Part shown: one piece after another, positions 12,541 through 30,826 of the stretch | Numbering within the stretch: the stretch's first letter is position 1 | Layout of the letters: every line of letters starts with the position of its first letter | NCBI GenBank assembly: GCA_009692515.1 | Contig: SHZA01000003.1 | Coordinates: 11,966 to 75,965, forward strand | Source of the DNA: Bdellovibrionales bacterium | GTDB taxonomy: Bacteria > Bdellovibrionota > FAC87 > UBA2466 | Reading direction: 5' to 3' | Length of the DNA: 64,000 nucleotides | Made by a program: the position numbers and the translations under genes | Notes under the pieces: generated by a model | What the model was told of the DNA's origin: nothing | Databases searched by the model: none | What the model saw: only the letters and a program-made list of their open reading frames with translations

Positions 12541-13719
12541 ATGTTAGTTATTCAAAAGTATGGTGGAAGTAGTTTAGCGACTCCAAAACACATTCAAAAT
12601 GCGGCCCAACGGATAGCTGACCTTCGTAAGAGTGGAAGCCAAGTTGTGGTGGTAGCTTCGGCTATGGGCCGTATGACAGATCATCTTTTACGGCTTGCAG
12701 AAAAAACGGTAAAGGTTCCACCTCCTAGAGAAATTGACATGTTATTAACCGCTGGAGAGCGAATTTCCATGTCTCTTCTTTCAATGGCACTCCAAGAATT
12801 GGGAGTGGCTGCCATTTCCTTTACAGGATCTCAGAGTGGAATTATTACAACTAATGATCACACCGATGCAAAAATTATTGATATTCGTCCGTATCGAATT
12901 TGCGAAGAGTTGGCTCTTGGAAAGGTAGTGATCATTGGAGGTTTTCAGGGAGTCAGTGAGAAAAAAGAGATTACAACCTTGGGGCGAGGAGGGTCTGATA
13001 CAACAGCGGTGGCCTTAGCTGCCGTTTTACAAGCTGATCGCTGTGAGATTTTAACTGACGTTAATGGACTCTATTCTGCAGATCCTAGATTGGTTCCTGA
13101 AGCAAGAATTTTAACTTCCGTAGATTATGAGTCGGCTTTGGAACTAGCCAGTCTTGGAGCGAAGATGCAGGCTCGCAGCATTGAATTAGCTAAGAAATTT
13201 AATGTGAACATTAGGATTAGCTCAAGCTCGTCACAGACAACAGCGGGAACTCAGATTCCTTTAAGTTTAAAAAAATCGGGTACAGCCATCGAGCAAATTA
13301 AGGTAACTGGAGTTGCCACAAAAGATGGGTTTCATTTTTTTAAAACGCAATCCGAAATGGTAACGTTACTAAAGGCCTTAAAAAATATCCCCGTGCCATT
13401 ACGATTTTTGGCGCACCAAAAAACGGGGGTCTATTTTTTAATTGAAAAGGAGCAGGTAGTTTTAGTTCGTCAGATTTTAACCGAGCAAAACATAAACTTT
13501 GAAGAAACTCAAAATGCAGCAATCGTTTCTGTCTTAGGGGAGAGCTTAACTCATTCAATTGAGTTCTTTACTAGTGTCTTTTCTCAAATTGAAATGGAGA
13601 AAATAGATTTGTTGTTTTCAGCTAGTAATGCAATTTCAGTCACATTTGGGGTCGGAGCCAAACATCAGGAATTACTAGCGAGATTCATTCATAAGACCTT
13701 TATCACCTCAATAGATTAA
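12541..13719 (+). CDS. lysC: Aspartate kinase
   Basis: MLVIQKYGGSSL…VVVVASAMG kinase N-terminus; C-terminal ACT-like region. Confidence 0.85.
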   Translation: MLVIQKYGGSSLATPKHIQNAAQRIADLRKSGSQVVVVASAMGRMTDHLLRLAEKTVKVPPPREIDMLLTAGERISMSLLSMALQELGVAAISFTGSQSGIITTNDHTDAKIIDIRPYRICEELALGKVVIIGGFQGVSEKKEITTLGRGGSDTTAVALAAVLQADRCEILTDVNGLYSADPRLVPEARILTSVDYESALELASLGAKMQARSIELAKKFNVNIRISSSSSQTTAGTQIPLSLKKSGTAIEQIKVTGVATKDGFHFFKTQSEMVTLLKALKNIPVPLRFLAHQKTGVYFLIEKEQVVLVRQILTEQNINFEETQNAAIVSVLGESLTHSIEFFTSVFSQIEMEKIDLLFSASNAISVTFGVGAKHQELLARFIHKTFITSID

Positions 13720-14154
13720 TAAAAATGAAGGCCCGCCTGATTATTAAGTCAGTCGAGCCTTTGCTAAAAATGAGCTAAAGTCCATTTTTACCTAATCGGA
13801 CCTCACCTCGTGAATCGTTAAGTTTGTCATCACACCACCCCCTTTCAGTGGGCATGTAGCCCGAAGTCCTTTTGTGAAAAAGAACCTCTTAGGTTTACTA
13901 TAACAGCTTCGAAAAAAAAGCTCATCTCAGGAAAAAAACAAGGCGCCATAAACTATTGTATTTAATGAGCTAAAGCGATTAAGTAGAGTTTATTAATATC
14001 TTTGTCTGCGCGATAATGCGACGTGCTAAAATAGAACATTAATTGAGGTGTCGGTGCATGGCACCAAGTCATCAAGTTATTAAGGGTTTTTTCCGAAAAA
14101 GCTACTAGGAGGGACTCCTAAAAGTCACTCCGCATTATTTTTTGGGGGAGAGTC

Positions 14155-15039
14155 ATGATTATTGCTTTACTTAGTATTGGAGTCACAGGAGGGACTGCCT
14201 TCTACTTATCATGGAATCTATTCTCCGGGGCTCTAGAGGATGCGGCAGCGGGCCGATTGGAACAGGATCAGAAAACCGCTAGTACTGGATTACTAAAACT
14301 GACCCGCCCTTTATTTAAAGCGTTGGTAATGCCGTATTCTCAAAAACTAAAACTTGAAGATTGGAAAAAGAACAATAAACGCAGAATAGTTTCTGCTGGA
14401 TTAGAAGATGCTTTGGATGTGAATGAGCTTCTGGCCTTTAAAATTTTCATGGGAATTGTAGTTCCAATTTCGATTTATACCTATTTTTTGATTACAGGAA
14501 GCCCAATTCCAATTTGGCTTATGGGTGCCATGATGCTTATTGGTTTTGTATATCCAAGTCTGATGGTCTCAAGTGCTAGAAAAAACAGACACGAAGAAAT
14601 AAAATTACAGTTACCATTTGTTATTGATCTTTTAACTTTATCAACTGAGGCGGGACTAGATTTTATTGGAGCCCTACAGAAGGTGGTTGAAAAAACTCGC
14701 TCTGGTCCACTGGTACAAGAGATTGAAAGAATGCTTCAGGAAATTCGCTTGGGGACTACGAGAGCAGATTCGATGCGAGCCATGTCATGGCGAATTGATC
14801 TTCAAGAAACCTCTTCATTAATTGCGGTATTAGTCACAGCAGACCAAATGGGTGCTAGCTTAGGTGATGTTCTTAGAGTGCAATCGGACTTAATTCGAAC
14901 TCAACGATTTACCAGTGCAGAAAAAAAAGGAGCAGCGGCCACACAGAAACTCCTTTTCCCACTCATCTTTTTTATTATGCCTGCGGTGTTCATTATGATA
15001 TTTGGGCCGGTAATTTTAGGATTTTTTGGAGCTAAATAA
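14155..15039 (+). CDS. tadC: Tad/Flp pilus assembly protein TadC-like (type II secretion system F domain)
   Basis: T2SS-F domain signature …QLPFVIDLLTLSTEAGLDFIGALQKV…; three TM segments; RBS GGGGGAGAG upstream. Confidence 0.7.
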   Translation: MIIALLSIGVTGGTAFYLSWNLFSGALEDAAAGRLEQDQKTASTGLLKLTRPLFKALVMPYSQKLKLEDWKKNNKRRIVSAGLEDALDVNELLAFKIFMGIVVPISIYTYFLITGSPIPIWLMGAMMLIGFVYPSLMVSSARKNRHEEIKLQLPFVIDLLTLSTEAGLDFIGALQKVVEKTRSGPLVQEIERMLQEIRLGTTRADSMRAMSWRIDLQETSSLIAVLVTADQMGASLGDVLRVQSDLIRTQRFTSAEKKGAAATQKLLFPLIFFIMPAVFIMIFGPVILGFFGAK

Positions 15040-22002: not shown

Positions 22003-22503
22003 ATGCGAGGCATCATAAATTTAAGGCCGAGTATTTATTTTATATTGGTATTACTATTTATCTCAACTAGCTGTGGTCTAAAGCCGGCAGGGTCAAATGA
22101 AGCTGCTTCAGTTCCCACCACCTCACTTTCGGTCTATGTATTTTCGGCTCCTTGGTGTGCGGAATGTAATCGGGAACTGCCCCTATTGAAGGAAAAATAT
22201 TTTAAGGAACTTACCCTGGCCGAGCAATCTCAGGTTTCAGTTAGTGTATTTGTGGTGACTGGAAAAACACCAGGGCAAGTGGCGAGTCAAGAGGTGGCTG
22301 ATGAGTATGGAAATTCTTTGGCACTTCCCTTTACAATGCTTCCTGACAAATCTTACAAAATGTATCGCAAGTATTTTGAAGAGGGGAATGCTATTCCAGC
22401 AGCGGTATTACTAGATAATAATCAGCAGGCGATCCAATTGTATGAAGCAGGAAGTACAGATTTGAATGATCTATTTGCAAAAATAAAACAGAACTTAAAT
22501 TAA
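22003..22503 (+). CDS. TlpA-like thiol:disulfide oxidoreductase (redoxin), probable lipoprotein
   Basis: Signal peptide ending …STSCG; thioredoxin-fold CxxC motif WCAEC. Confidence 0.55.
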   Translation: MRGIINLRPSIYFILVLLFISTSCGLKPAGSNEAASVPTTSLSVYVFSAPWCAECNRELPLLKEKYFKELTLAEQSQVSVSVFVVTGKTPGQVASQEVADEYGNSLALPFTMLPDKSYKMYRKYFEEGNAIPAAVLLDNNQQAIQLYEAGSTDLNDLFAKIKQNLN

Positions 22504-22507
22504 TAGG

Positions 22508-22990
22508 GTGAATAAAATGAGAGTCTTAACTCTTATAGTGCTAATTTTTTCTAGCCTTTCTTTTGCTAAAATTGCCCCTAGTTTTCAAGGTGAGTTAATG
22601 GGCGGTGGGCGAGTTAATTTAGCCGATGAATTAGGTAAGGACCATTCAAAGGCTCTATTGTTGTGTTTTTGGGCCACATGGTGTGCTCCTTGTATGCAAG
22701 AGTTAAAACAGGTGACCGAGAAGCTAAAAAATGATCCGACCATTCCCTTGAAACTTCTAACTATAAATGTGGATACGGCTGAAACAGCAAGTGACGTTAG
22801 TCCCACATTAAAGCTGTATGATTTTAAAATACCTGTGATTAAAGATCAAAAACATGAAATATTTTCTAAGTATCAAGACGCAAAAACGTTACCTTTTTCT
22901 GTTTTAATAAAGCCCAATGGTGAAATAGCCGAAACTTTTAATGGCTTTCATGAAACGATGTTTACTAAAGTAAGAGAGGCCTTAAAATGA
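22508..22990 (+). CDS. TlpA-like thiol:disulfide oxidoreductase (redoxin)
   Basis: Signal peptide; WCAPC motif; alternative ATG start at 22517. Confidence 0.55.
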   Translation: MNKMRVLTLIVLIFSSLSFAKIAPSFQGELMGGGRVNLADELGKDHSKALLLCFWATWCAPCMQELKQVTEKLKNDPTIPLKLLTINVDTAETASDVSPTLKLYDFKIPVIKDQKHEIFSKYQDAKTLPFSVLIKPNGEIAETFNGFHETMFTKVREALK

Positions 22991-24486
22991 AAGGGGTCTT
23001 TACTTTATTGGCCATTCTCTCAGCGATGGCTTTTTCAGCAACTGAAATGGGCAGCACCTCAGATTCTCTTTCTAATAATTTCAGAGTTTCGGCGTCGAAC
23101 CATCTAATTTTTTCAAGTGCAAATAACGATGTTGATAAAACCTCTCCCCCAGTAAAAAGTTTTCTAAATGAAGGAAAGGCTAGGGTCGAATTTGGGTACT
23201 GGAGTGGGGGTCTTCATTTTACAAATAGTTATCTAGCTTCCAATAATCCTAAAACGAATCGATTAATCCACTTAGAAAAAAAATCATTGAGATATGAATC
23301 TAAAAACTGGCAGGTGATTGTCGGCGATAGTCATCAAGAATTGGGTAGGGGCATGGCACTATCCCTTTACAGTGAACCGGTATTTGGCATTGATAACAGT
23401 CTAGAAGGGGCCGTGGTTAAATATCGACCCGAAAACTTTGAAATGACCTTCTGGGGTGGAAGAGTAAATACTTTAGTGACTCCAGTAGCGATCAATCCCG
23501 TTGATATGAGAATGAAAGATCGTAATGTTATAATGGCAAGTGGATCCCTAGGATATAAATTAAATGGTAACAATCGCTTAGGAGGCCATTATTTAATCAC
23601 CGTCAATCAGCGAAAATTAGATTCGGATTTAGATAAAAGACTGCAAACGGTAGGCCTAACATTTTCGCAAGAAAATATTTTGAATTCGATAGATCTGTAT
23701 CTAGAATCGAATGCCATGGTGACCGATAAGGCCAACAAAGGACACTGGATTAGAAATCCTAATGCGAGTGCTAGTTTTGCTTCTCTATCCTGGTCAAAGT
23801 CTCCATGGACGTTAAAGGGCGAACTGAAAGATTATCGAAAGTTTGATTGTGATTTTAGAAGACCTCCCTCTTTGGAAGAGGACGTTCCTTTAGTTAATGT
23901 ACCTAATAATGTCAGTGATGTGACGGCAGCTAGAATTTATGCAGAGAACAGGTCCCTTGAAACCGGCACCAAAATTTATTCCTCTTTTCTTTATGGGCGA
24001 GACCGTTTGGAGAATGCAAATTTTTATCATGCCGTACTAGGTAATAAAATTCCACTGGGCCGAAAATCTGAGGTTGAATTTAAAACAGGTTATCGATGGT
24101 TGTTGAATCACAGTAATATTTCACATGGGTCTATCAAAGGGAAAATAAAAACTTTGCCTGGGCAGATGGTGGAACTTGAATTTAGAAAACAATATTCGCA
24201 GCTGCAATTAAATACTACCCCGACCCAAGAAGATAGAAATGCAGTTGCCATCACCTACTCATTTTCTGAATCATGGAACATGTCGGCCGGATTGGAATAT
24301 GTTCCTACAAATGATTTGGAATTAGGAAAAGAATTTTTTAATCTTGGAGCCTCTTATAAGAAAGGTTCACTCTCTTCTCGGGCGTTTATCGGCGAGACTA
24401 GTGGAGGAGCTCAATGTGCGGGGGGAGTTTGCCGCCAGGCACCAGCCTACTCTGGGGCCATGCTAGAGGCCTCCTATTTATTTTAA
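22987..24486 (+). CDS. Putative outer-membrane beta-barrel protein
   Basis: Signal peptide; alternating amphipathic beta-strand pattern; C-terminal aromatic …ASYLF; ATGA overlap with upstream redoxin. Confidence 0.45.
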   Translation: MKGVFTLLAILSAMAFSATEMGSTSDSLSNNFRVSASNHLIFSSANNDVDKTSPPVKSFLNEGKARVEFGYWSGGLHFTNSYLASNNPKTNRLIHLEKKSLRYESKNWQVIVGDSHQELGRGMALSLYSEPVFGIDNSLEGAVVKYRPENFEMTFWGGRVNTLVTPVAINPVDMRMKDRNVIMASGSLGYKLNGNNRLGGHYLITVNQRKLDSDLDKRLQTVGLTFSQENILNSIDLYLESNAMVTDKANKGHWIRNPNASASFASLSWSKSPWTLKGELKDYRKFDCDFRRPPSLEEDVPLVNVPNNVSDVTAARIYAENRSLETGTKIYSSFLYGRDRLENANFYHAVLGNKIPLGRKSEVEFKTGYRWLLNHSNISHGSIKGKIKTLPGQMVELEFRKQYSQLQLNTTPTQEDRNAVAITYSFSESWNMSAGLEYVPTNDLELGKEFFNLGASYKKGSLSSRAFIGETSGGAQCAGGVCRQAPAYSGAMLEASYLF

Positions 24487-28408: not shown

Positions 28409-28626
28409 TCTAATGTCTTCCTCTTAGTTGAAATTATTTGGAGAATTCAAACAACGTGAACCTCAAATAAGCCCACTGTTTATTTTAAACATACCAATAT
28501 CTTCACCGTATTTAAGTCTTAAAAAATAAACTTCTCGATGTGGGCTGTCAACGAGACAATCTATATTTTTTAAACACTTCCAAATCAGATGACAAAATTG
28601 AGAAGTGGTTTAATAATGTATTAAAT

Positions 28627-29928
28627 ATGTCTGTGGAATTCAAATATCAAAGTGGGTTAGGTAACTGTTTTGACACCGAAGCCTTGACCGATGCCTTACC
28701 TAGAGGTCAAAACTCTCCGCAAAAACCCCCGTATGGTTTGTATGCGGAGCAGCTAAGTGGCTCCTCATTTACAGCGCCGCGCCATGAAAATCAAAAAACT
28801 TGGTTATACCGAATTCGTCCCTCTGTTTTACACGAAGCTTTCGAGCCCTTAAAACATGGTTTGTTAAAAAGTGGTCCTTTTGAAGAAGAAAACCCATCGC
28901 CTAATCAAATGAGATGGGATCCGATGATCTGCCCTACCGAGCCCACCGATTTTATAGACGGTTTAATTACGATAGCAGGCAATGGAAATGTATCTCAAAA
29001 CTCCGGGTGTGCAGCTCATTTGTATTTTACCAATAAACCCATGACAGATCGGTTTTTTTATAATGCAGACGGTGAGTTATTATTTATTCCAAGTTTTGGC
29101 GAAGTTAAAATTAATACAGAATGTGGCATTCTTTCGATTAAGCCGGGAGACATTGCAGTTATTCCCCGTGGAATGCGATTTCAAGTCTCTCCTTTAGGAG
29201 TTTCAGCTCAAGGTTATTTATGTGAAAATTATGGAGCTAATTTCCGATTGCCTTCGTTAGGCGCCATCGGAGCTAATGGGCTTGCCAATCCACGCCATTT
29301 TTTAACGCCAATAGCGGCTTACGAAGATCGAACTGGAAATTTTAAATTGGTCACTAAGTTTCAAGGAATCCTTTGGGAGGCCAAAATCGCTCACTCACCC
29401 TTAGATGTGGTGGCTTGGAGTGGAAATTATGCCCCCTATAAATATGATTTAAGTTTATTTAACACGATCAATACTGTGAGTTTTGATCATCCGGATCCCT
29501 CTATTTTTACCGTACTCACATCGCCCAGTTTTGTGCCGGGAATCGCTAATGTAGATTTTGTTATTTTCCCTTCTCGTTGGATGGTGGCTGAAAATACGTT
29601 TCGCCCTCCCTATTATCATAGAAATTATATGAGTGAGTTTATGGGACTCATTTTTGGTAAGTATGAGGCTAAGGGTGAGGGGTTTAATCCCGGTGGAATG
29701 AGTATTCACAATATGATGTCGGGTCATGGCCCCGATACCGAAGCCTTTAAAATGGGAACGGAATCGCCTCTGACTCCTCAGTATTTAGGGCAGACGCTAG
29801 CTTTTATGTTTGAAACTAACCAGGTATTGAGACCCACCCCGTTTGCGCTGTCGACTCCTCGTCGACAGAAGGACTATTTAGGTTCTTGGCGTGGATTAAC
29901 AAGCCATTTTGATTCGAAGAAGAGGTAA
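28627..29928 (+). CDS. hmgA: Homogentisate 1,2-dioxygenase
   Basis: N-terminus MSVEFKYQSGLGNCF…; HGD cupin core; ORF-track GTG start at 28540 is probably an over-extension; ATG at 28627 gives ~433 aa. Confidence 0.85.
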   Translation: MSVEFKYQSGLGNCFDTEALTDALPRGQNSPQKPPYGLYAEQLSGSSFTAPRHENQKTWLYRIRPSVLHEAFEPLKHGLLKSGPFEEENPSPNQMRWDPMICPTEPTDFIDGLITIAGNGNVSQNSGCAAHLYFTNKPMTDRFFYNADGELLFIPSFGEVKINTECGILSIKPGDIAVIPRGMRFQVSPLGVSAQGYLCENYGANFRLPSLGAIGANGLANPRHFLTPIAAYEDRTGNFKLVTKFQGILWEAKIAHSPLDVVAWSGNYAPYKYDLSLFNTINTVSFDHPDPSIFTVLTSPSFVPGIANVDFVIFPSRWMVAENTFRPPYYHRNYMSEFMGLIFGKYEAKGEGFNPGGMSIHNMMSGHGPDTEAFKMGTESPLTPQYLGQTLAFMFETNQVLRPTPFALSTPRRQKDYLGSWRGLTSHFDSKKR

Positions 29929-29929
29929 T

Positions 29930-30826
29930 ATGCAACCCCCAAAGACCGTTTCAGAAGAGATTTTAAAAAAGGTAAAAAGTGGAGAGATCTCTCAAAGTAA
30001 AGTGGACCAATATCACAAGCTTTTAGAGCGAATTAAGCGAGAAATTCTTCCCCACGAGGTCATTACGAGTAATCAGTTTTGTCAGTGGTTTGAAAAGGGA
30101 CGGATAGATAAAGAGGATGTGTGTCACTTTTTGGTTCAATTTTCAGTGTTTTCAAATCTTTTTATAGAAGCTCAATTGAAAAAAACTATTAATGCACCAA
30201 GCCTAGAGGCGATGCATACCTCAAAACAAATTTTAATGAATGAGTTAGGTGTTGTTTTTAAGCCCACAAAAAAACAGTCTGACCCTAATTCTTCCTCAGA
30301 TCTTGAGGAAGATATTGTTCAAGAAGAGGGCACTGTAGATGGCGGCGCCTTTTATTTTAGAGCGGCCCATTTTGAGTGGATGCTTAGAATGATTTCTCAT
30401 GTGGGTTTAACTTTTAATGATGTAGGTAAACGTCGTCACGGTACCGAATCAACCTTATTTTTCTGTGATGAGCTTTGTAGACTTTATGGTTCTGAAGATA
30501 CTCAAGTGGGATTAGGTGCTAGTTTTGCTGTCGAAAATTGGGCCGCTGCAGGATTTTGGAAAGAGTTGATCAAAGGGCTTCATGCTTTCAAAGAAAGAGA
30601 ATGTCCCAAATTGCCCTTAGCCTTTTTCAATTGGCACGACAAGGTAGAAGACCAGCATGCCGCTCATACTTGGGATGAACTAGAAGAGGAGTTTTTCTCA
30701 ATTGAATTGAATGAGGACAAATTTTTTCATGGAGCGAAAGAAATGCTTGATGGCGTCAACTCCTTCTGGAAGGGCCTTAATCAAGACCGTAAAAACCGTG
30801 AAGGGGTGCGAAGATTTCAGGGGTAG
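29930..30826 (+). CDS. Heme-oxygenase-like / iron-containing redox enzyme family protein (putative di-iron HDO-like)
   Basis: Helical protein with spaced carboxylate/His positions (…NELG…, …AAHFEWM…, …FAVENW…, …HDKVEDQHAAH…) reminiscent of HDO/PqqC-like E-(H), E, ExxH pattern; ATG at 29930 follows hmgA stop by 1 nt with GAGGT RBS. Confidence 0.4.
   Translation: MQPPKTVSEEILKKVKSGEISQSKVDQYHKLLERIKREILPHEVITSNQFCQWFEKGRIDKEDVCHFLVQFSVFSNLFIEAQLKKTINAPSLEAMHTSKQILMNELGVVFKPTKKQSDPNSSSDLEEDIVQEEGTVDGGAFYFRAAHFEWMLRMISHVGLTFNDVGKRRHGTESTLFFCDELCRLYGSEDTQVGLGASFAVENWAAAGFWKELIKGLHAFKERECPKLPLAFFNWHDKVEDQHAAHTWDELEEEFFSIELNEDKFFHGAKEMLDGVNSFWKGLNQDRKNREGVRRFQG

Follow-up and report, generated by a model that had tools for sequence, protein, structure and literature searches.

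An unnamed family of heme-oxygenase-like putative dimetal proteins encoded next to homogentisate dioxygenase and in tyrosine-catabolism operons

Directly behind the homogentisate 1,2-dioxygenase gene (hmgA) of a Bdellovibrionales bacterium lies a gene of an unnamed family, whose product very probably has the fold seen in heme-oxygenase-like dimetal oxidases and oxygenases (HDOs), with a predicted metal-binding site. The pair is located on the forward strand of a 64,000-nucleotide stretch of assembly GCA_009692515.1 (contig SHZA01000003.1, positions 11,966 to 75,965), which as a whole is referred to here as the window. Relatives of the HDO gene recur among the genes of tyrosine catabolism in several phyla, and a functional link of the protein to the homogentisate pathway is highly probable. 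The best explanation as a whole, to which we assign a probability of roughly 0.5, is that the protein is a dimetal oxygenase performing an accessory oxidation or hydroxylation for this pathway. Tyrosine degradation via homogentisate is a textbook pathway that is regarded as enzymatically complete. An unnamed family that is 52-96% identical across phyla, resides in tyrosine operons and is coupled to HmgA or HPPD implies a missing activity, which could be a feed-in hydroxylation, cofactor maintenance or damage control.

The gene pair and its junction are as follows.
28627 to 29928, forward strand: hmgA, homogentisate 1,2-dioxygenase, 433 amino acids (TIGR01015 equivalog; Pfam HgmA_N and HgmA_C)
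29919 to 29926, forward strand: Shine-Dalgarno sequence AAGAGGT that serves the HDO gene, set within the final codons of hmgA and overlapping its stop (translational-coupling junction)
29930 to 30826, forward strand: HDO-like gene, 298 amino acids, heme-oxygenase-like putative dimetal oxidase/oxygenase of an unnamed family

The window HmgA passes the cut-off of the TIGR01015 equivalog (635 bits against 510.75) and matches HgmA_N and HgmA_C with E values of 2e-118 and 9e-73. Its gene begins with the ATG at 28627 and stops with the TAA at 29926-29928, and after a gap of 1 nt the HDO-like frame opens with the ATG at 29930 and closes with the TAG at 30824-30826. An earlier note on this DNA, made from its letters alone, had described this spacing and a separate GAGGT ribosome-binding site, and both agree with the coordinates and the sequence; the GAGGT at 29922-29926 shares the first base of the hmgA stop codon. 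The layout of AAGAGGT, stop codon, 1-4 nt and ATG is repeated in the four closest relatives (loci L003-L006), and in a further relative (L001) the two genes overlap by 4 nt. In this genome, the HDO protein would be made from the hmgA transcript through translational coupling. A cytochrome oxidase operon lies upstream on the opposite strand and uvrC converges from downstream, so that hmgA and the HDO gene form an isolated bicistronic unit.

To judge from 5026 homologs in the protein collection at E<=1e-3, relatives in 522 of 185,579 GTDB species and 75 of 298 positions that are at least 98% invariant among 200 sequences, the HDO frame is a real gene and not a chance open reading frame. By the same kind of comparison the family is compact; only 415 clusters of a 50%-identity representative library match at E<=1e-3. 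The best 120 protein homologs are 60-96% identical, about 297-302 amino acids long and named 'hypothetical' or, by JGI, 'PqqC'. The best 80 GTDB relatives (52-96% identical) are carried almost entirely by metagenome-assembled genomes and belong to Bdellovibrionota, Acidobacteriota, Krumholzibacteriota, Fibrobacterota, Actinomycetota/Acidimicrobiia, Planctomycetota, Marinimicrobia, Gemmatimonadota and Chromatiales. The only cultured carriers found, by a plasmid search, are cyanobacteria with homologs of 46-47% identity on megaplasmids, namely Gloeothece verrucosa PCC 7822 (plasmid NC_014533.1, 505683-506585; L166) and Kovacikia minuta (NZ_CP083583.1, 803463-804350). Apparent tandem paralogs in L059, L061 and L062 were rejected, the extra copies being an artefact of single-linkage clustering.

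The assignment to the HDO fold is supported by structure prediction and by profile comparison. The AlphaFold model (pLDDT 79, pTM 0.77) is a helical bundle corresponding to the seven-helix heme-oxygenase-like bundle, and a Foldseek search with this model ranks CADD (E 4e-5) and CADD-like proteins best. The earlier note had predicted an all-helical protein of about 300 residues with the motifs NELG, AAHFEWM, FAVENW and HDKVEDQHAAH; all four motifs are present in the 298 residues, and the model is mostly helical except for a low-confidence insert, whose residues 110-145 have a pLDDT below 50 and which carries short strands at 109-112, 134-136 and 139-142. Matches to family models are weaker. The proposed Pfam family PF14518 (Haem_oxygenas_2) was hit at 20.9 bits (E 3.4e-4), below its gathering threshold of 28.9, although a few homologs bear a precomputed match to it; PqqC and TenA, proposed along with it, gave no match. 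The CADD model TIGR04305, the sole NCBIfam match, scored 24.4 bits over the C-terminal half only, with a curated cut-off of 200. Searching the PDB with the single sequence or with a profile of close relatives (A1) yielded nothing useful, whereas a wider profile that takes in distant relatives (A2) matched three solved proteins, namely BesC, the CADD-like 3b5o and 9pj4, a 4-aminobenzoate synthase, and aligned H147, E202 and H236/E240/H243 onto their metal-ligand positions.

HDOs are defined by a ligand set that comprises three histidines and three carboxylates on three core helices (PMC13108848). In the window family, the residues E105, H147, E149, E202, H236, E240 and H243 are each invariant in 200/200 sequences, and their codons and the family-specific insert are located as follows.
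30242 to 30244, forward strand: E105 codon (NELG), a carboxylate that closes helix 92-105 and never varies, candidate for the sixth metal ligand
30245 to 30367, forward strand: family-specific insert, residues 106-146, variable in sequence, with a short hairpin (from the model and alignments A1 and A2)
30368 to 30376, forward strand: H147-F148-E149 codons (AAHFEWM), H147 aligned with a ligand histidine and E149 an extra invariant carboxylate
30533 to 30535, forward strand: E202 codon (AVENW), aligned with the core-helix-2 glutamate of BesC and 9pj4
30635 to 30658, forward strand: H236-x3-E240-x2-H243 codons, core-helix-3 motif, matching the H-x3-(D/E)-x2-H of CADD-type proteins and BesC

H147 aligns with the ligand histidine of BesC and of the CADD-like protein (HFEWL here, HSTLF in BesC), and the core-helix-3 motif reads HDKVEDQH in the window, HIDVEVGH in BesC and HQKADIYH in 9pj4. 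The full set of three histidines and three carboxylates is present, the sixth ligand being either E105 or E149. E105 lies outside the profile alignments to solved HDOs, and we infer its ligand role; the insert, some 40 residues long, parts it from H147 at a place where the core helix of other HDOs is unbroken. H147, E202, H236, E240 and H243, with E105 or E149, would accordingly form the metal site on three core helices, one of them interrupted by the family-specific insert. Its fold and its ligand pattern place the protein among the HDOs, and it is not a PqqC or TenA. The HDO-type part of the earlier reading is supported by the conserved ligand set and by the weak, sub-threshold PF14518 and TIGR04305 matches, whereas its alternative of a PqqC or TenA relative reduces to a shared fold.

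The physiological setting was read from 80 genome and 80 metagenome loci, with neighbours scored within the available flanks and assigned, in high-GC loci, from conservation-ranked open reading frames (hand-made scripts) cross-checked with tblastn. A core tyrosine-catabolism gene is found in the flanks of 30/80 genome loci (22/48 where each flank spans 3 kb or more) and of 32/80 metagenome loci (11/18 under the same flank limit). The immediate neighbour of the HDO gene is HPPD in 20 loci, HmgA in 17 and MaiA in 13. Canonical hmgA is directly upstream in 9/9 Bdellovibrionota-type genome loci (L003-L011) and in 7 metagenome contigs. Elsewhere the gene order differs. Acidobacteriota (L014, L016; also the P0119 contig) have an acetoacetate-CoA-ligase-like (AACS-like) gene followed by HPPD-HmgA-X-FAH-HDO, where FAH is fumarylacetoacetase and X an unassigned gene; L085 has HDO-HPPD-HmgA-X-FAH with overlapping stops and starts. 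HDO and HPPD are coupled with a 4-nt overlap in L068, L081 and L085. The order is HDO-HPPD-FAH-HmgA-flavin reductase-AACS-like in Fibrobacteraceae (L023), HDO-aminotransferase-HPPD-FAH-HmgA-flavin reductase in Acidimicrobiia (L047) and HDO-HPPD-FAH-HmgA in Gemmataceae (L071), and in nine actinobacterial genomes HDO-HPPD comes after a divergently oriented regulator of the AsnC type. Same-strand clustering with HPPD, HmgA, FAH or MaiA thus occurs in independent lineages with differing gene orders (Bdellovibrionota, Acidobacteriota, Actinomycetota/Acidimicrobiia, Gemmataceae, Planctomycetales, Fibrobacteraceae and Chromatiales), with the exception of a Krumholzibacteria/FCB cluster.

These neighbours are genuine pathway genes. 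The operon HPPD scores 457 bits against TIGR01263 (4HPPD, cut-off 277) and the fumarylacetoacetase 517 bits against TIGR01266 (cut-off 375); the MaiA frames carry GST domains and the aminotransferase is of the HisC type. Outside Bdellovibrionota, the ring-cleavage gene is a divergent short HmgA-like cupin of about 375-390 amino acids (L016 6527-7699; L077 7024-8148; 12 genome loci), which is 24-29% identical to the window HmgA, scores only 58.7 bits against TIGR01015 and matches only HgmA_N in Pfam, and which is flanked by the bona fide HPPD and FAH.

The earlier note had the HDO gene standing in for fahA and maiA. This does not hold, because the ortholog follows a complete HPPD-HmgA-FAH-MaiA series, often with an AACS-like gene behind it, in two Chromatiales loci (L077, L082) and, among the metagenome contigs, in at least 14, MaiA being directly upstream in L077, L082, L110, L112-114, L117, L118, L129, L134, L159 and others. 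As MaiA and the HDO gene occur in one operon and are not mutually exclusive, HDO supplements the canonical catabolic route and does not replace MaiA, and the route to fumarate and acetoacetate is left intact. The non-canonical fate of homogentisate or maleylacetoacetate that the note had considered is not supported, the gene keeping company with bona fide HPPD and fumarylacetoacetase in other phyla, and no result was found to support its suggestion of pigment or quinone chemistry.

Other neighbours vary. In L112, a tryptophan 2,3-dioxygenase gene (13178-14356) directly follows HPPD-HmgA-FAH-MaiA-HDO-AACS-like, so that the cluster is one of combined aromatic amino-acid catabolism. In loci of the Krumholzibacteria type (e.g. 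L057 10933-11538, L025 10905-11534), a secreted YceI-like or DUF1579 protein is encoded on the same strand 26-70 nt downstream, and a 275-amino-acid protein without family match precedes the HDO gene on the opposite strand. A fixed layout without other tyrosine genes is shared by L029, L033, L045, L049, L059, L061, L063, L115 and L156: an Acs/AACS-like gene (minus strand) about 2.8 kb upstream of HDO, a 280-amino-acid frame without Pfam match (minus strand) and HDO (plus strand). Of the neighbours left unassigned (c3, c36, c50, c59 and X), none is homologous to another, and hence there is no universal HDO partner.

Clues to the reaction come from redox partners. One homolog (P0126; locus L083, 10001-11176) is a 391-amino-acid protein with an N-terminal cytochrome b5 domain that is 47% identical and retains all family motifs. 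Its neighbours include genes for a myo-inositol oxygenase, a trypsin and a TIL-domain protein; a more distant member (P0133, 38% identity, 555 amino acids) carries an N-terminal SAM-methyltransferase domain. A gene of the Flavin_Reduct type is found in the operons L023, L047 and L071, from three phyla, assigned by Pfam for L023 and by tblastn similarity to the L023 gene for L047 and L071; a flavin reductase has no role in the canonical homogentisate pathway. The b5 fusion together with the flavin reductase in three operons suggests a redox reaction in need of an electron donor, and these sequence features point to a requirement for both a reductant and O2.

We propose that the HDO protein is a cytosolic dimetal, most likely di-iron, oxidase/oxygenase that acts within the set of genes converting phenylalanine and tyrosine via homogentisate to fumarate and acetoacetate, across phyla. 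If it works as characterised HDOs do, its metal pair would, once reduced, bind O2 and form a peroxo-type intermediate that oxidises a small acid or amino-acid substrate, and the cluster would be re-reduced by an external donor of the flavin reductase or cytochrome b5 type. HPPD, HmgA, MaiA and FAH are already present in complete operons, in some together with an aminotransferase and an AACS-like enzyme, and HDO would therefore perform an extra step outside the canonical four. Phenylalanine hydroxylation is the only reductant-dependent oxygenation tied to the homogentisate pathway, and 2-hydroxyphenylacetate is the product that HPPD forms from phenylpyruvate. In favour of a missing step, signatures of PhhA or pterin-carbinolamine dehydratase, sought with short motifs only, were found in none of about 165 loci nor in the window. 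A hydroxylase feeding the pathway is accordingly a tentative proposal, its role being a reductant-dependent ring hydroxylation that would turn phenylalanine into tyrosine without a pterin or, alternatively, bring phenylpyruvate-derived hydroxyphenylacetate to homogentisate; the latter option would explain the tight coupling to either HPPD or HmgA. More speculative is the specific version in which HDO is a fifth pathway enzyme, a pterin-independent di-iron aromatic hydroxylase with a donor of the flavin reductase or b5 type, and equally speculative is the assignment of its reaction to phenylalanine to tyrosine or 2-hydroxyphenylacetate to homogentisate.

Several observations weigh against an accessory oxygenase of the homogentisate pathway. 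None of the roughly dozen validated HDOs listed in a 2026 review hydroxylates an arene ring (PMC13108848). The flavin reductase is present in only three operons and the b5 fusion in one cluster. In the largest, Krumholzibacteria-dominated cluster, a link to tyrosine genes was seen in only 2/44 loci, the neighbours being YceI or DUF1579 genes, or an AACS-like gene nearby. The Gloeothece homolog heads a cassette with 2OG-Fe dioxygenase-family and cysteine-desulfurase-like genes and no tyrosine genes; cyanobacterial-type relatives may do other chemistry, and function may not be uniform beyond the core family. The six-ligand geometry, especially the choice between E105 and E149, is proposed from alignment and conservation.

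Among the other functions considered, an iron maintenance factor is unlikely, though it fares best: the labile dimetal site would store Fe(II) for, or deliver it to, HPPD and HmgA, or re-reduce them, in the manner of XylT for catechol 2,3-dioxygenase or of the di-iron RIC/YtfE repair proteins. Such a role would suit the coupling of HDO to either Fe(II) dioxygenase, HmgA in the window and other Bdellovibrionota and HPPD in L068, L081 and L085, and Fe(III) could be reduced with the help of a b5 or flavin reductase partner. However, the 75 near-invariant positions include many aromatic ones and suggest a pocket for a defined substrate more than a simple iron carrier, MaiA or an AACS-like gene and not a dioxygenase adjoins HDO in many operons, and we know of no HDO that acts in this way. 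The lability of HDO clusters is a further point in favour (PMC13108848).

A damage-control enzyme that oxidatively destroys a reactive by-product is quite unlikely. Its targets, with the same low likelihood, could include benzoquinone acetate formed when homogentisate autoxidises, or beta-diketones of the succinylacetoacetate/succinylacetone type that derive from maleyl- or fumarylacetoacetate. HDO is accessory to an otherwise complete pathway, often lies at the distal end of the operon adjoining MaiA, FAH or an AACS-like gene, and is linked to an AACS-like gene also in loci without other tyrosine genes; C-C cleavage is known for HDOs (PMC13108848). Yet the named by-products derive from knowledge of tyrosinaemia and not from these data, and cleavage of the Dke1 type would need no reductant, while the b5 and flavin reductase links suggest one. 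Dke1 is an acetylacetone dioxygenase with cofactor-independent beta-diketone cleavage.

It is improbable that HDO is unrelated to tyrosine catabolism, e.g. a CADD-like self-sacrificing synthase or an enzyme of cofactor or metabolite biosynthesis whose operon linkage is secondary. CADD and CADD-like proteins are the best Foldseek matches and TIGR04305 is the only NCBIfam match, but its 24 bits fall far below the cut-off of 200. The FCB-group cluster is seldom linked to tyrosine genes and the cyanobacterial relatives sit in a small biosynthesis-like cassette; against this, linkage with HPPD, HmgA, FAH and MaiA recurs in at least six lineages, in differing orders and with overlapping start and stop codons, which is hard to explain without a shared function.

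The reading closest to that of the earlier note, a glutathione-independent maleylacetoacetate isomerase filling the maiA slot, is very improbable and largely refuted. In the window, HDO follows hmgA, a position where maiA or fahA often sits; the operons L047, L023 and L071 lack a GST, HDO being their sole unassigned gene besides the flavin reductase; and many host lineages may lack glutathione. The presence of a GST-zeta/MaiA immediately upstream in the Chromatiales and metagenome operons named above contradicts it, an O2-activating site of three histidines and three carboxylates or a b5 fusion has no obvious purpose in an isomerase, and acidobacterial-type operons hold another unassigned gene, X, exactly between HmgA and FAH. 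Gene X, of about 290-300 amino acids, is conserved and always flanked by the short-type HmgA on one side and fumarylacetoacetase on the other, stop and start codons overlapping (L016 7696-8598, L014 2098-2964, L085 13153-14028, the P0119 contig, a fragment in L020, and L101, L131 and L152). It had no Pfam, NCBIfam or PDB-sequence match and may supply another function that the pathway lacks, such as that of a glutathione-independent maleylacetoacetate isomerase, a subject on which a literature search returned nothing relevant.

A PqqC or TenA homolog (cofactor-less PQQ synthase or thiaminase II) we consider rejected: JGI labels a few members 'PQQ biosynthesis protein C', which appears to be an over-annotation, and both proteins are among the fold matches, but they rank below dimetal HDOs in both fold searches, match in neither Pfam nor NCBIfam, bring no pqq or thiamine gene among the identified recurrent neighbours, and have the heme-oxygenase fold without a dimetal site or the conserved ligand set that is invariant in the window family.

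Compared with known systems, the fold and the cofactor type of the window protein are familiar, whereas the clade, the split ligand helix and the physiological setting are new. The self-sacrificing 4-aminobenzoate synthases CtCADD and NePabS of the HDO superfamily are 16-17% identical to it; CADD-type proteins have about 215-230 amino acids, against 298 here with a 40-residue insert splitting the first ligand helix, and their context is folate and not tyrosine catabolism. UndA, HrmI and BesC are substrate-oxidising HDOs acting on free acids or amino acids, and likeness to them (and to SznF, AetD, FlcD, RohS, PolF and HamA) is limited to the ligand motifs at 10-15% identity. MaiA (GST-zeta) takes the equivalent operon position after hmgA/fahA in classical operons with a different fold. 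PhhA and PhhB, the pterin-dependent phenylalanine hydroxylase system that is often clustered with hpd/hmgA in proteobacteria, would be functional analogues only, hypothetically, their fold and cofactor being unrelated to HDO. The about dozen validated HDOs all belong to natural-product, hydrocarbon or cofactor biosynthesis (PMC13108848, 2026 review); none is in a primary catabolic pathway or linked to homogentisate, in contrast to the window family with its tyrosine operons. Full-text searches brought up no paper linking heme oxygenase-like proteins or iron-containing redox enzymes to homogentisate or HPPD. If the proposed hydroxylation is true, primary catabolism would gain its first HDO, and HDOs their first arene hydroxylase, and a superfamily that is known almost exclusively from the biosynthesis of natural products would reach into central catabolism; the family also supplies a naturally b5-fused, possibly self-sufficient member for the study of HDOs.

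As for the remainder of the window, no homolog of HPPD, FAH, MaiA, AACS-like genes, aromatic aminotransferase or flavin reductase was found in its 64 kb. One further element precedes the gene pair.
28589 to 28617, forward strand: promoter-like site (ATGACA and AATAAT, 17 nt apart) within the 218 nt that separate hmgA from the divergent coxB (minus strand)

This site matches the consensus at 10/12 positions and is weak evidence, as promoter-like sites in the coxB-hmgA region do not exceed shuffled controls (8 vs 5.8 +/- 2.7). A terminator-like hairpin at 30290-30312 was rejected; it lies inside the HDO frame, and such sites are not above shuffled controls. At 22003-24486, two adjacent frames of 166 and 160 amino acids have hydrophobic, signal-peptide-like N-termini and a CxxC motif and look thioredoxin-like by eye; they are followed, just upstream of the cytochrome oxidase operon, by a frame of 499 amino acids with a hydrophobic N-terminus.

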